Assembly: GCA_964476835.1 (NCBI GenBank)
Contig: CAYZCE010000003.1
Span: 8,579 to 72,578, forward strand
Direction: 5' to 3'
DNA length: 64,000 bases
Source: an uncultured Rhodospirillaceae bacterium
GTDB lineage: Bacteria > Pseudomonadota > Alphaproteobacteria > Micavibrionales > UBA2020
In this document: one piece after another, positions 45,060 through 50,301 of the stretch
Layout of the letters: each line of letters starts with the position of its first letter
How positions within the stretch are numbered: the first letter of the stretch is position 1
The notes under the pieces: generated by a model
The model's input: the letters and a program-made list of their open reading frames with translations, nothing else
What the model was told of the DNA's origin: nothing
The model's database searches: none
Program-made: the position numbers and the translations under genes

Positions 45060-46322
45060 TTACTGGATGGTGCCTGCGGAAACGGCCGTCGGCGGCTTCT
45101 GGCGGTCGAGGTCATGGCCGTACATGGCTGCTTCCATGAAGAGCATTTCTTCCTGCCGGCGATAGAGGTCGTTCATCAGCTGCAGGCGCAACGCGTTGAT
45201 CGACCCTTGCTCGCGGATGACTTCCTCGGGGCTGTTGATGAGGCGCGCAAGGTAGTCGGGGTCGCTAAAGCGTTCCTTGGTGATGGCCTGGCGCAGCTCG
45301 CTGTAGCTCGGGTTGTCGGAGGCTGCGCTGGCGGGCAGGCCGGCGCCGGTGCGCATGGACTTGAACACGCTGCTCAGGCTGGTGTCGGCGGGGACCGAGA
45401 TGCGCTCCGCCATCATCTGCGCGACGACGTTGTATACCGCGTTGCGGCGCGCGATGTCGGCGCGGCGGTCGAGTATCGACTGGTGGCCGGTCGCGGTATC
45501 GACGGCGGTGGGCGGGATCGGGTTGTCGGCGGCGGGAGATGCGAATGTGCGCAGGGCGCCCGAGACCATCGTGACGTTCTCGGGACTGGAGAGGTCGATC
45601 GTCTGCACCTGCCCCCACAGCAGGTTGGACATGTCCTTGTTTGCGCCGGGGCGGGCGCCGGGCGTGGTGCCGCAACCCTGATCGCCGTTGGCGGGGTCGC
45701 AGAAGGTGCTGACGTATTCGTCCCACTGCGACTTCATCTCGGCGGCGCGGCCGGTGGCGGCGGGCGTGCCCTTGGCGTTGCTCATCGTCTTGGCCGCGTC
45801 CTTCGTCATGCCGCGGTTGAGCGCGCGGGAGACCTGGTAGGCCTTGGTCTGCTGCGGCGCGGTGGTGTCGGCCTGGCAGGTGGCGACGCCGGCGGGCAGG
45901 TAGCGGTGATAGGCTTCCTGGTTGCGCTTGCGTTTTTTCTGGTTGGTGTCGTTTTGCTGCATCGCGTCGGTCATCGAGCCGATCTGGCGCGTCTGGTCGA
46001 CCTGCGCGACGGAGAGCTGGCGCGTCATCGTCTTCATCGAGGGGAACAGGCGGTTGTCCCACCAGTCCTGCAACCACGAGCGGATGTTGGAATCGAATTC
46101 GTCGAGGCGCGCCTTCATTTCATAGGTCGCGGTGTTGGTCAGGTCCTGCTTGGCGAAGTTCTCGACCTCGCTGATGTAGTCGTTGAGCGAATCCTCGTTG
46201 TCCTGCGCGGCGTTCTGGATGGCGTTGCTGGCGCTGCCGACGTTTTCGCACTGCGCGAAGGCAGGCGATGCCGCCGCCGTCAGCGTTGCGAGGAGGAAGA
46301 GGAGGGCAACTTGTTTTTTCAT
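45060..46322 (-). CDS. secreted Cys-containing protein, tandem paralog 1 of 4 (unassigned family; possibly IcmX/TraW-like)
   Basis: Signal peptide ...AASPAFA|QC. Shared family motifs WLQDWWDN, ATCQ, FCDPANGDQGCGTTPG, TIDLS, PIPPTAV and NPSYSEL. RBS GGGGGA lies within the upstream stop region. Confidence 0.8.
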   Translation of the reverse strand: MKKQVALLFLLATLTAAASPAFAQCENVGSASNAIQNAAQDNEDSLNDYISEVENFAKQDLTNTATYEMKARLDEFDSNIRSWLQDWWDNRLFPSMKTMTRQLSVAQVDQTRQIGSMTDAMQQNDTNQKKRKRNQEAYHRYLPAGVATCQADTTAPQQTKAYQVSRALNRGMTKDAAKTMSNAKGTPAATGRAAEMKSQWDEYVSTFCDPANGDQGCGTTPGARPGANKDMSNLLWGQVQTIDLSSPENVTMVSGALRTFASPAADNPIPPTAVDTATGHQSILDRRADIARRNAVYNVVAQMMAERISVPADTSLSSVFKSMRTGAGLPASAASDNPSYSELRQAITKERFSDPDYLARLINSPEEVIREQGSINALRLQLMNDLYRRQEEMLFMEAAMYGHDLDRQKPPTAVSAGTIQ

Positions 46323-46332
46323 GCCATCCCCC

Positions 46333-47653: not shown

Positions 47654-48988
47654 TTACTGCACCGGCGCGCGGCTGGCCGCGTTGATTGTGCGGGATTCTT
47701 CCTGGTCGGCCATCATCGAGACTTGCACCGAGAGCACCAGCGCGGTGCGTTCCAGCAGCTCGTAATAATCGCGCAGCTGCATGAGGTAATAGGCATTGAG
47801 CGTCAGCTTTTCCATCTCCGCGCCCGCGGCGTCGCCGATCTGGCCGTCGGCGTATTTGCCGGTGTTGAAGCGGTCGATCGTCTCGGCGTGCATGATTTCT
47901 TTATAAGACGGGTTGTCGGAGAGGTCGGTCGTCGGCGCGCCGGATTCCGCGCGCAGCGCCTTGACCCATTCGCCCATGTTGCTGCCCGGCATGCGCCAGC
48001 TGGTGATGAGGCCCATGACGGAGCGCGCCGCCGCGTAGCGCGCGAGGTAGGAGCGGCGGTCGAGCATGTTTTGCTGGCCGCCCGCGCTCTTGAGCGCGCC
48101 TTTCGACATCGGGTCGGCCGAGGGCACGCCGGAGAGGTTGTTGTTGATCGTCTCGACCGTGGTTTCCATCTTGGGGTCGGTGACGTCGATGGTCAGCTGC
48201 TCGGTGATGAACTTCGTCGGCTGGGTGTCGGCGTTGACGTATTTGGGGTCGGCGCCGGAAGGGCAGGCGTTTTGGCCGCCGTTGCCGTCGGGGTCGCAGA
48301 AAATCTGCTTGTAGTCGTCGTAGCGTTTGCGCTCGGCGTCGAGCGCGCCGGTCGCGCCCGGCGTGCCTTTGGTATTAAGGCCGGTCTTGAGCCCGCTGAC
48401 TTCCCACGCGCCGCGCATGGTGCGCGAGAACGCGGCTGCGCGGCCCTGCCCGCCCGCCACCGTGGCGTCGCCGCAGACGTTGGGCGGGATGACGGTCTGG
48501 CGCTTCGCCTCGATGTCGCTGGCGGCCATCGTGCTCTCGGCCTTGACGACGGTTTCGGCGTCGGCGGCGGATTGCAGCACGCGCGACTGGTCGGCCGTCG
48601 CGGCGGTCATCTGGTCGGTGGCGCTTTGCAGGGCGGGGTTGAAGTTCTTGGCCCACATGTTCTTCCACCAGCTGATGATGTCGAGCTCGGTCTGGTTGAG
48701 GCGCTCGAGAAGCTTCTTCATCATCTCGTCGTCCTTGTCGCTCATGTGCTTGACGACGTCCTTGGCGGATTGCTTCAGGTTGTCCTTCAGCTTCTTGAGG
48801 TCCTGCTCGACCGTGTTGGCGGTGCCGGGGCTGTCGCAGACCGGGTCGCAGATCCATTCGCTGCCCGAGATGGAGGACGAGGAATTCACGTTGACGCTGT
48901 CGCCGCCGCCCGTCTGCGCCTGCGCGGGCGCGGCGGCCAGCGCGAGCAGGAGGACGGAAGCGAGGATGATGAAACGGGGCTGCGTCAT
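47654..48988 (-). CDS. secreted Cys-containing protein, tandem paralog 3 of 4
   Basis: Signal peptide ...AAAPAQA. Motifs ISWWKNMW, FCDPDGNGGQNACPSG, TIDVTD and NPSYKEI. ATGA overlap with paralog 4. Confidence 0.8.
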   Translation of the reverse strand: MTQPRFIILASVLLLALAAAPAQAQTGGGDSVNVNSSSSISGSEWICDPVCDSPGTANTVEQDLKKLKDNLKQSAKDVVKHMSDKDDEMMKKLLERLNQTELDIISWWKNMWAKNFNPALQSATDQMTAATADQSRVLQSAADAETVVKAESTMAASDIEAKRQTVIPPNVCGDATVAGGQGRAAAFSRTMRGAWEVSGLKTGLNTKGTPGATGALDAERKRYDDYKQIFCDPDGNGGQNACPSGADPKYVNADTQPTKFITEQLTIDVTDPKMETTVETINNNLSGVPSADPMSKGALKSAGGQQNMLDRRSYLARYAAARSVMGLITSWRMPGSNMGEWVKALRAESGAPTTDLSDNPSYKEIMHAETIDRFNTGKYADGQIGDAAGAEMEKLTLNAYYLMQLRDYYELLERTALVLSVQVSMMADQEESRTINAASRAPVQ

Positions 48989-50301
48989 CGCGTGGTCGCC
49001 CCCATCGCGGCGGTGCCGGATTTCTTGTCGCGCCTGACTTCGTCGCCGACCTGGGCCGCGAGCATCATCGACCAGCGGTCCATGAGGTCGAGCTGGTCGC
49101 TCATCTGCATCAGCTGGAATGCGGTCTGGGTGATCATTTCGCGCTGGTTGTTCTCCGGCTCGTCGATCTGGCTGGAGGCGTATTTACCGGTACGGAAGCG
49201 CTCGCTCATCATCGCCTGCATGATCTCGTTCTCGCTCGGCTTGTCGGAGATGAGGCTGGCGGGGATGCCGGCTTCCTCGCGCATCGCGCCGACGAAATCC
49301 TTGAGCTTGGACGAGCCGGGCACGCGGCGCGCGACGATATAATAAAGGCTGTCGTAAACCGTCTGGCGCTTGGCGGTATAGGCCTGGCCCGCCAGCTGCG
49401 CGCGCTGGCCGTCCTGGCTGTTGACCGCGTTGGGCGGAATGGGCTGGCGCACGAAAGGCTCCGCGACGTTGGTGAGCAGGTCGTCGACGGTCTGCTTGGT
49501 GTTGGCGTCGGTGACGTCGATCGTCTCGCGGCCGAAGACGGTGCCGGCGACGTCGACGTCCTGCCCGGCATAAGTGCCGCTGGTCGTGCAGCCGGCGTGG
49601 CCATTGTTGTCGTCCTTGTCGCAGTAGCGCGATTTATAATCGTCCCAGCGGTCCTTCATGTCGGCGGCAGGACCTGCGGCGGCGGAGATCGGGTTGCCGT
49701 AGGCGTCCTTCGTCGCGTTCGACGAGCGCGCCGCGCGTTCCGACGGCGCGGCGGAGCCGTAGGCCTGGCGGATGGTGTGGGCGGTCGTCATGCCGCCCGC
49801 GACGGTCGCGGTCTGGCAGGTGCTTTCGCTCGGGCGTTGCTCGCGCTGGCTGTCGATCTCGCTCTGCGCGAGGGCGGAGACGTCGCGGTTGGCGTTGGCG
49901 GCGTCGCGGATCGAGGCGAGCTGGCGTTCCTGGTCGGGCGTCAGGGCGGTCAGCTGGTCGGTCATCTCTTTCATCCCCGGTTCCATGCTCTTGAGCCAGA
50001 ACTGGTCGATCCAGTCGGTGATGTGGTCGGTGACGTTGTCGCCGCCGTTGGTGTCGGGGCCGATCTTCAGCGTGATTTCTTCCTGGAAGTTCTCATACGC
50101 CTCTGAGATATAGGCGGAGATATAGCCTTGCGCTTCCTCGATCGCGGCGGTCACGGTGCCGCAGAGCGACCCGATGGCGCCGGTGAAGGACCCGCTCGCG
50201 ATACAAGGGCCTTCGGGGCAGTCCGCGCGGGCGGCGGTCGGCGCGCCCAGCAGGAAGGCCAGCGCCAGCGCCATCAATAATTTTTTCGCCGTATCCTGCA
50301 T
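48985..50301 (-). CDS. secreted Cys-containing protein, tandem paralog 4 of 4
   Basis: Signal peptide ...GAPTAARA|DC. Motifs WIDQFWLK, STCQ, YCDKDDNNGHAGCTTSG, TIDVTD and PIPPNAV. Confidence 0.8.
   Translation of the reverse strand: MQDTAKKLLMALALAFLLGAPTAARADCPEGPCIASGSFTGAIGSLCGTVTAAIEEAQGYISAYISEAYENFQEEITLKIGPDTNGGDNVTDHITDWIDQFWLKSMEPGMKEMTDQLTALTPDQERQLASIRDAANANRDVSALAQSEIDSQREQRPSESTCQTATVAGGMTTAHTIRQAYGSAAPSERAARSSNATKDAYGNPISAAAGPAADMKDRWDDYKSRYCDKDDNNGHAGCTTSGTYAGQDVDVAGTVFGRETIDVTDANTKQTVDDLLTNVAEPFVRQPIPPNAVNSQDGQRAQLAGQAYTAKRQTVYDSLYYIVARRVPGSSKLKDFVGAMREEAGIPASLISDKPSENEIMQAMMSERFRTGKYASSQIDEPENNQREMITQTAFQLMQMSDQLDLMDRWSMMLAAQVGDEVRRDKKSGTAAMGATTR

Follow-up and report, generated by a model that had tools for sequence, protein, structure and literature searches.

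Four tandem IcmX/TraW-like paralogues in a chromosomal Dot/Icm-type gene cluster of a Micavibrio-related alphaproteobacterium

Beside the dotDCB-icmT genes of a Micavibrio-related alphaproteobacterium lie four consecutive genes of similar length whose products are clearly related to one another and yet strongly diverged; the locus raises the question of what these proteins are and why a Dot/Icm-type (T4BSS) secretion system should keep all four. The initial annotation of the window (the whole 64-kb stretch of DNA that was analysed) suggested an expanded IcmX/TraW-like set. The IcmX of Legionella is a pentamer placed along the central axis of the outer-membrane core complex, where it rests on a pentamer of DotA and seals the protochannel, and activation displaces it outward (Yue et al., 2025); the DotA-IcmX assembly extends to ~45 nm when activated (bioRxiv 10.1101/2025.06.23.660953). 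IcmX has been described as a VirB5-like protein that forms a pentamer on VirB6/DotA (PMC12857230), and it has been called Legionella-specific, being hard to detect by sequence (PMC8896642); a passage of the latter source attributes to it a fast divergence relative to core genes (PMC8896642, citing Gomez-Valero 2019). The literature searched contained no report of IcmX paralogues and none of a T4BSS in Micavibrionales.

The array and its genomic setting

The four consecutive minus-strand genes of 420, 436, 444 and 438 aa that had been called from the sequence were found as open reading frames at 45060-50301 (Table 1), with GC3 values of 0.89–0.91 that are typical of coding DNA in this 63% GC window. 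The genes are tightly, translationally coupled: the start of W3 overlaps the stop of W4 by 4 nt (ATGA), and the two gaps that follow, from the W3 stop to W2 (with GGAGG) and from the W2 stop to W1 (with GGGGGA), are each 10 nt long, bear a Shine-Dalgarno sequence and take the form 'TAAGGAGGATGGC-ATG'.

Table 1. Coordinates of the array and of the T4BSS genes in the window.
Feature	Coordinates	Strand	Details
W4 (array position 1)	48985..50301	-	438 aa; IcmX/TraW-like; signal peptide ending ARA-DC
W3 (array position 2)	47654..48988	-	444 aa
W2 (array position 3)	46333..47643	-	436 aa
W1 (array position 4)	45060..46322	-	420 aa
Spacer upstream of array	50302..50410	-	109 nt; AT-rich
TcpQ/STN-domain (PilL-like) exported protein	50411..51967	-	518 aa
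icmT/traK	51982..52230	-	NCBIfam NF038220, E 4.6e-24; translation
dotB ATPase	52278..53456	-	TIGR02524, E 1.7e-114
dotC/traI	53435..54631	-	PF16932, E 4e-75
dotD/traH lipoprotein	54609..55184	-	PF16816, E 1e-35; NF033882
Lytic transglycosylase (TrbN-like)	55221..55676	-	Pfam/NCBIfam scans
DsbG/DsbC-like thiol:disulfide interchange protein, cluster head	55687..56655	-	NF008657, E 1.9e-24
Second T4BSS cluster, same system	31853..39485	-	icmJ/dotN, dotF/icmG, dotG, dotH/icmK, dotI/icmL

The array does not stand directly at the end of dotDCB-icmT, as was first described, since the TcpQ/STN gene and the 109-nt spacer intervene, giving a chromosomal cluster of the order dsbG-slt-dotD-dotC-dotB-icmT-tcpQ-like-four copies. 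The TcpQ/STN protein consists of two STN-like modules with Ala/Pro-rich linkers between them, and a TcpQ-domain gene separates icmT from the array in both of the other loci with gene calls (L001 and L032). The spacer could be the site of a promoter of the array's own, and a sigma-70 scan returned none on the array strand. The terminator that had been placed after copy 1 was not recovered: a consensus scan found none on the minus strand past 45060, and the 78 nt downstream of W1 fold no better than shuffled sequences (z -0.94). Co-transcription of the array with dotDCB, which had been inferred from that terminator, is likewise unsupported, the AT-rich spacer preceding the array. The DsbG/DsbC-like protein encoded at the head of the cluster could plausibly assist the folding of the paralogues, which bear cysteines.

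The second T4BSS cluster also contains two DUF6750/TraQ-like genes and a dotJ-like gene, and no DotA/TraY-like gene was found among the scanned open reading frames of the 64-kb window. Ankyrin-repeat genes neighbour the system. A conjugative element is an unlikely reading of the locus, as the window holds origin-proximal housekeeping genes (mnmG, parAB and dnaN) and as the T4BSS clusters are interspersed with flagellar and RNase J genes, an arrangement of conserved synteny; no relaxase was found in the window. Co-occurrence of the array with dotDCB-icmT in other genomes, proposed as a check, was observed in every other locus that reaches far enough upstream, and in L032 the linkage to icmT and tcpQ is kept though dotDCB is not adjacent. 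The locus documents a Dot/Icm-type system, with ankyrin-repeat neighbours, that is vertically inherited in Micavibrio-related alphaproteobacteria.

Shared features and family placement of the four products

The paralogy of the four proteins was confirmed by BLASTP, in which every pair aligned at 27–33% identity over 320–410 residues (E 1e-34 to 2e-51). All four have N-termini that, judged by eye, read as the cleavable Sec signal peptides first described, with a hydrophobic stretch and the ends AFA-QC, ARA-QC, AQA-QT and ARA-DC (the hyphen marks the predicted cleavage site). The collinear series of motifs reported for all or most copies is likewise present, W3 being the copy that has neither TCQ nor IPPxAV. 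Four cysteines (C33, C162, C227 and C238 in W4 numbering) are kept in 86–100% of the members across all four subfamilies, and one further conserved cysteine is common to W4 and W3.

Library scans gave these proteins no name. Pfam-A, in a copy that appears to be older than the TraW model PF28212, and NCBIfam returned sub-threshold noise only (e.g., Uteroglobin, TrbC and CHASE3), and the direct NCBIfam scan produced no match to a TraW model; PF28212 is on record for no homologue of the four. Membership of the IcmX/TraW (VirB5-like) family is nevertheless supported, by structure, by profile comparison and by the position of the genes in a chromosomal Dot/Icm cluster. An AF2 model computed from a 149-sequence alignment reached a pLDDT of 89.1 (an earlier model from 22 sequences, with a pLDDT of 57, was discarded) and has helices at 38-193 and 296-425 that flank a loop-rich segment at 194-295. 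When this model was compared by Foldseek with 350,542 PDB chains, as the initial annotation had advised, the sole standout was 9ngy_AP1 (E 1e-2, probability 1.00, 241 aligned columns), a match of modest E-value and low TM-score (0.27); all other matches had E-values of at least 3, and no VirB5 structure was among them. Entry 9ngy is the DotA-IcmX protochannel, which contains two proteins, and DotA is its chain FP1 (1048 aa); AP1 is thus Legionella IcmX.

Profile comparisons lead to the conjugative counterpart. By hhalign (98%, E 1.9e-13), the family profile matched a protein that a Roseomonas MPF_I plasmid encodes in the TraW position, and this TraW-like protein, which matches the family with E-values of 1.9e-13 and 1.9e-16, also matches the NCBIfam model conj_TraW (NF033888, E 1.1e-10). 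Its gene lies in a DotA/TraY neighbourhood, and the 478-aa gene that separates it from DotA lies outside the family, so that the Roseomonas plasmid is single-copy. The alignment of R64 TraW itself was matched weakly (83.5%, E 8.4e-6, 191 columns; hhalign values for TraW overall were 79–83.5%, E 1.6e-5 to 8.4e-6), in a region that takes in an equivalent Cys motif, YC...GG..C. The structural match, the Roseomonas protein and the weak R64 match agree with the expanded IcmX/TraW-like set that was proposed.

The profile check against Legionella IcmX gave no match, in a test that has little power. Profiles of 4, 13 and 149 family sequences, run against a PDB set that includes 9ngy, yielded only apolipoprotein and coiled-coil noise and did not reach the IcmX chain at E ≤ 10; nor did R64 TraW, whether used as a single sequence or as a profile, reach it at this threshold, which is why the sequence test for IcmX homology has so little power. 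The search for TraW homologues returned close enterobacterial relatives only (at least 63% identity), so no broad TraW/IcmX profile was available, and the Roseomonas TraW-like protein alone had no match among PDB sequences. At E ≤ 0.001, the homologue family takes in 1,389 representatives of 50%-identity clusters and is unnamed in every library searched; IcmX-type caps may therefore be widespread and simply unannotated.

Order, age and divergence of the copies

In all 16 of the other distinct genomes with a complete array (17 loci, two of them from one Micavibrio contig, counting only loci in which the complete array could be read), the copies stand in one and the same order, W4-W3-W2-W1. These belong to 25 related loci that were found with an alignment of the W1 subfamily, a set that favours genomes whose W1 copy can be recognised. 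For every copy there is a positional orthologue of its own, with a score roughly double that of any other copy; orthologues are 45–69% identical, against ~30% between copies, with the closest relatives found for W1 (up to 69%) and about 50–52% for the others. In a neighbour-joining tree, the four subfamilies form separate clades and the TraW-like proteins fall outside them. Given the fixed order and a positional orthologue for each copy, sequence comparison indicates that the duplications are ancient and that the copies look non-redundant, in keeping with the old rather than recent expansion that was first proposed. At the DNA level the copies are only 70–76% similar, over short motif stretches, which rules out recent duplication or gene conversion among them.

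For one pair of genomes, the paralogues are 37–45% identical compared with 59–85% for DotD, DotC and DotB; divergence faster than that of the core genes fits an exposed component. The same clade has a fifth paralogue, longer and dispersed, with large, variable, adhesin-like N-terminal extensions and a location far from any T4SS genes; it may be a secreted substrate or adhesin.

Candidate assemblies and comparison with known systems

The four IcmX/TraW-family copies are probably non-redundant parts of a single hetero-oligomeric cap that sits on DotA. The retention of all four in the same order in every related genome examined suggests a cap made of several different subunits, and we infer hetero-oligomer formation from this conservation and from the coupling of the genes; contact with DotA and a role as gatekeeper or tip are putative. 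An ancestral gene would have given rise, long ago in the Micavibrio-related clade, to four tandem copies and the fifth, longer, dispersed one, with all four tandem copies retained, fixed in order and translationally coupled. Their products would be exported, disulfide-stabilised, all-helical IcmX/TraW (VirB5-like) proteins, perhaps folded with the aid of the cluster's DsbG-like protein, that enter one assembly on the DotA of a chromosomal, presumably effector-translocating, Dot/Icm-type machine, either as a hetero-oligomeric cap or as a distal segment of the channel.

In the Trw system of Bartonella, the VirB5-like tip subunit TrwJ is amplified in tandem. By analogy, each paralogue might form a homopentamer of its own, the set serving as interchangeable caps whose different tips suit different hosts or prey; the kinship of the paralogues with the channel tip, the TrwJ precedent and a divergence faster than that of core genes, as for an exposed part that contacts the target, would all agree with this. 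It is unlikely, however, because every complete array has four copies in fixed order, because strict positional orthology over a deep clade is the opposite of the lineage-specific, variable amplification that adhesin repertoires would show, and because the close translational coupling points to production of all four in about equal amounts. The array does not fit lineage-specific, recently duplicated tip genes of variable copy number of the TrwJ type.

Since there are five ancient subfamilies (four tandem, one long) and IcmX is pentameric, the five could each fill one position of the pentamer, forming an asymmetric heteropentamer with a single target-recognition arm. This is a rather improbable arrangement; if true, it would make the T4BSS gate of this clade a naturally symmetry-broken one, in place of the symmetric homopentamer of Legionella. 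It is quite improbable that the paralogues form stacked homo-oligomeric rings, one for each, in a periplasmic or extracellular conduit longer than that of Legionella that could, for example, cross the envelope of a prey cell; the evidence of non-redundancy applies here as it does to the hetero-oligomeric cap, and the Legionella assembly does reach ~45 nm on activation (bioRxiv 10.1101/2025.06.23.660953). The sequences would look alike for stacked rings and for a mixed ring. We know of no precedent for stacked homo-oligomeric rings of IcmX type. It is very improbable that the four, as secreted substrates, adhesins or toxins, only happen to lie beside T4BSS genes and resemble IcmX through generic long helices, a reading compatible with the low TM-score (0.27), with sequence searches that never reach Legionella IcmX and with the adhesin-like extensions of the fifth member far from T4SS genes, but opposed by the Sec signal peptides, through which Dot/Icm substrates are not normally recognised, by the strong profile match (E 1.9e-13) to a TraW-position protein that itself matches NCBIfam TraW, by a top structural match among 350,542 chains that is exactly the T4BSS component predicted from context, and by a linkage to icmT and tcpQ that is kept even without adjacent dotDCB (L032).

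The DotA-IcmX pentamer, which has been proposed to serve the Dot/Icm machine both as its gate and as a conduit that can extend, was resolved only in 2025. Four, perhaps five, diverged IcmX paralogues, kept as a fixed, coupled array, would be a natural experiment on this gate, in which one can ask whether the IcmX cap can be heteromeric, which surfaces have to be kept for docking on DotA and for closing the ring, and which evolve freely for target contact.

Legionella IcmX (lpg2689; 9ngy) resembles the four proteins in being exported, ~420–470 aa long and encoded in a Dot/Icm cluster, in having long N- and C-terminal helices around a loop-rich middle domain, and in diverging fast relative to core genes. 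It differs in being a single-copy homopentamer, whereas four tandem paralogues and one dispersed paralogue are found here, and in having no detectable sequence similarity to them; icmX also lies near dotA, in the gene order icmX-icmW-icmV, whereas no dotA occurs in the 64-kb window. R64 TraW (IncI1; NF033888, PF28212), the conjugative counterpart of IcmX, is similar in length (400 aa) and is linked strongly to the four through the Roseomonas plasmid protein; in contrast to them, it is single-copy, lies beside traX-traY and is part of a DNA-transfer system. An E. coli homologue is named 'TraW lipoprotein' in one database source, whereas the AxA ends of the four copies look like sites for signal peptidase I. 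The VirB5 of type IVA systems is about half the size of the proteins described here. Bartonella trwJ shares tandem amplification with the array, but its amplification is recent and variable, whereas that of the four IcmX/TraW-like genes is ancient and fixed in copy number.

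The four-gene array and its chromosomal setting

The four tandem genes W1–W4 lie on the minus strand in the order W4-W3-W2-W1 and encode proteins that align end to end in pairwise BLASTP comparisons (27–33% identity, E 1e-34 to 2e-51); their GC3 of 0.89–0.91 is the coding signature of the 63% GC window. Each protein has a hydrophobic leader with a terminal AxA site (AFA↓QC, ARA↓QC, AQA↓QT, and ARA↓DC), and the collinear motif series described in the initial annotation was found in the array, except that W3 lacks TCQ and IPPxAV. A 4-nt overlap joins W4 to W3, and the W3/W2 and W2/W1 junctions are 10-nt gaps reading TAA-GGAGG/GGGGGA-ATGGC-ATG. 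These two junctions (47619–47669 and 46298–46348) are near-identical, CCGGTGCA[A/G]TAAGG[G/A]GGATGGCATG, and each covers a stop codon, Shine-Dalgarno sequence and start codon, preceded by a shared '(A)PVQ' or similar at the C-terminus. The flanking coding DNA is otherwise strongly diverged. The duplications are old, since DNA similarity among the four genes is confined to short stretches of 70–76% identity.

Coordinates of the array, its neighbors and related genes
Feature	Sequence	Positions	Strand	Remarks
W4	window	48985-50301	-	438 aa ORF
W3	window	47654-48988	-	444 aa ORF
W2	window	46333-47643	-	436 aa ORF
W1	window	45060-46322	-	420 aa ORF
TcpQ/STN-domain (PilL-like) exported protein	window	50411-51967	-	518 aa; between icmT and array
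icmT	window	51982-52230	-	upstream of array
dotD, dotC, dotB	window		-	upstream of array
Lytic transglycosylase	window	55221-55676	-	upstream of array
DsbG-like oxidoreductase	window	55687-56655	-	upstream of array
ClpB-like ATPase and three ankyrin-repeat genes	window	56854-59451, 59381-62767	+	beyond dot genes
flgK, flgL, RNase J, IscX-like gene	window	39669-44920		between the two T4BSS clusters
Second T4BSS cluster	window	31.8-39.5 kb		icmJ/dotN, two TraQ-like, dotF, dotG, dotH, dotJ-like, dotI
DsbA/ScsC-like gene	window	27688-28461	-	
DsbA/ScsC-like and M48 peptidase-TPR genes	window	27688-29868	-	just past second T4BSS cluster
Sel1-repeat protein	window	899-1558	-	
Long fifth paralogue	L003	10001-12172		
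Long fifth paralogue	L034	2337-4688		
Long fifth paralogue	L035/L036	6001-9018		
Long fifth paralogue	L037	2661-6011		
TraW/IcmX homologue, Roseomonas mucosa plasmid	L029 (NZ_CP025192.1)	14503-15702		annotated hypothetical protein

The array had been placed directly at the icmT end of the dotDCB-icmT operon, with a terminator after W1; instead, the TcpQ/STN gene and a 109-nt AT-rich spacer at 50302–50410 intervene, and a scan of the minus strand gave no terminator (downstream fold z −0.94). In the TcpQ/STN protein, an STN-like module occurs twice as an internal repeat, the linkers are long and Ala/Pro-rich, and a TcpQ domain lies at the C-terminus; the protein has no known counterpart in the Legionella Dot/Icm system. 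A TcpQ-domain gene likewise separates icmT from the IcmX-like array in both related loci with gene calls, L001 (a Micavibrio MAG) and L032 (a more distant lineage).

The Dot/Icm-type system of the window is chromosomal and vertically inherited; a plasmid or ICE was considered unlikely. The window begins with mnmG, parA, parB, and dnaN. The position of flgK/flgL between the two T4BSS clusters is kept in L001 and L032, and that of RNase J and the IscX-like gene in L001, which speaks for a T4BSS that has long been passed on vertically. Beside the T4BSS cluster, the ClpB-like double-AAA+ ATPase gene is followed by three consecutive genes for ankyrin-repeat proteins (249, 341, and 499 aa), which are candidates for effectors directed at eukaryotes. 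The window also encodes a Sel1-repeat protein.

Family extent, conserved order and the long fifth paralogue

The W1–W4 family is large and unannotated. The four proteins had no match among Pfam-A and NCBIfam models, and the 21 relatives returned by a word-indexed search came from alphaproteobacterial or Micavibrio MAGs and bore no names; in an exhaustive HMM search, 1,389 cluster representatives passed E ≤ 1e-3, and 353 passed ≤ 1e-30. Four Cys residues (in W4 numbering C162, C227, C238, and C33, the last lying close behind the point of signal cleavage) are conserved in 86–100% of members of every subfamily, with one further Cys common to the W3 and W4 types, and would form two disulfides. Oxidative folding and a periplasmic or surface-exposed location fit the presence of the DsbG-like gene at the cluster head and of the DsbA/ScsC-like gene. 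The latter, which encodes a thioredoxin-type protein, and the adjoining M48 peptidase-TPR gene may belong to the envelope-folding support of the T4BSS.

Conservation of the array was assessed in 25 loci from species-representative genomes, retrieved with the W1 subfamily (MAG labels Micavibrio, Rhodospirillales, Alphaproteobacteria etc.). The order dsbG-slt-dotD-dotC-dotB-icmT-(gap for a tcpQ-like gene)-four family genes recurs in every locus reaching far enough, usually followed by an RNase J gene; L032 keeps icmT-tcpQ-four copies with no dotDCB ahead of them. For every window copy, closer relatives of its own share 45–69% identity with it, vs. about 30% between copies, and in 17 of 17 complete-array loci, from 16 distinct other genomes, every gene matched its positional counterpart in the window best, typically at about 350 vs. 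150 bits. In a neighbor-joining tree (405 columns, no bootstrap), each array position forms one clade, none of which includes the Roseomonas TraW-like protein or R64 TraW. Between the window and the Micavibrio MAG the paralogues share 37–45% identity, compared with 85% for DotB, 59% for DotC and 59% for DotD; on these identities the paralogues diverge faster than the core genes.

Some family members are longer (720–1,100 aa): the signal peptide is followed by a variable extension at the N-terminus (Ca-binding-type DxDxDG repeats in protein P0097, Cys-rich in P0165), and the IcmX-like core starts at the Trp cluster. Their genes are solitary and far from T4SS genes, always with yjeF on one side and a LysM/M23 peptidase gene on the other, and they form their own clade beside the W1 type (neighbor-joining tree, no bootstrap). 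In MAG DASPMW01 (GCA_035626855.1), one contig ends in a W1-type gene (L021) and a long paralogue (P0303) is also present, thus the five subfamilies can share one genome, as judged from one MAG in which binning errors are possible. The taxonomic labels or binning look doubtful for two MAGs with genes of this alphaproteobacterial array: 'Bdellovibrionales bacterium' for L016 (JBBRVE010000072.1), which carries the whole dot/icm cluster, and 'Patescibacteria group bacterium' for L021 (DASPMW010000016.1), which holds only the W1-type gene.

Relationship to IcmX and TraW

An AlphaFold2 model built from a 149-sequence alignment (pLDDT 89.1) comprises a signal peptide, three long helices (38–80, 90–155, 159–193), a loop-rich part with short helices that contains the FCD...GC motif (194–295) and a C-terminal part of helices up to a long last helix (382–425). 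Foldseek against 350,542 PDB chains matched it to chain AP1 of 9ngy, the Legionella DotA-IcmX protochannel, at E 1e-2 and probability 1.00 over 241 aligned columns, with a low TM-score of 0.27; all other matches had E values of at least 3. AP1 is IcmX, since DotA is chain FP1 (1048 residues), and the published description of IcmX agrees with the model architecture (bioRxiv 10.1101/2025.06.23.660953; PMC12857230).

At the sequence level, a weak tblastn match pointed to Roseomonas mucosa plasmids. The matching protein, of 399 aa and annotated as 'hypothetical protein', is encoded within a full MPF_I cluster, upstream of DotA/TraY by two genes, a placement equal to the traW slot of R64 traW-traX-traY. 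This protein matches NCBIfam conj_TraW over nearly its full length (E 1.1e-10). By hhalign, the family matches R64 TraW as a single sequence (79%, E 1.6e-5) and as a 15-sequence alignment (83.5%, E 8.4e-6), with its FCD-x-G-x-GC motif aligned to the TraW YC...GG..C. The Roseomonas plasmids are typed 'non-mobilizable' and carry a complete MPF_I/T4BSS cluster (DotD, DotC, DotB, DotO-like, DotG, DotH, DotI, and DotA/TraY). Legionella IcmX was reached in sequence searches neither by any family profile nor by TraW, which simply marks a very divergent family; such divergence fits the description of icmX as 'Legionella-specific' (PMC8896642). Fold, bridged homology and context, not sequence homology to IcmX, are therefore the grounds for filing W1–W4 in the IcmX/TraW family.

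A putative multi-subunit assembly

In Legionella, an IcmX pentamer atop a DotA pentamer closes the protochannel and shifts outward on activation (bioRxiv 10.1101/2025.06.23.660953). The copy number and order of W1–W4 are fixed across a deep clade, their positional orthology is strict, their genes are translationally coupled and, as an exposed component would, they diverge faster than the core machinery; these features suggest that the four proteins would be non-redundant subunits of one DotA-IcmX-type assembly. A mixed or co-assembled ring ranks first; next come, together, an arrangement in which each paralogue would form its own ring, the rings being stacked, and one in which the paralogues would provide alternative rings or tips; that W1–W4 are unrelated secreted proteins ranks last.

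The four-gene array gives direct access to the construction of the newly resolved DotA-IcmX gate and brings to light a large family that lacks annotation. A loose precedent is Bartonella Trw, in which a VirB5-type tip subunit has reportedly been amplified in tandem. IcmX and TraW are already known; what is new, with no description in the literature searched, is the combination in a T4BSS of an ancient, fixed four-gene IcmX array and a fifth, long paralogue.
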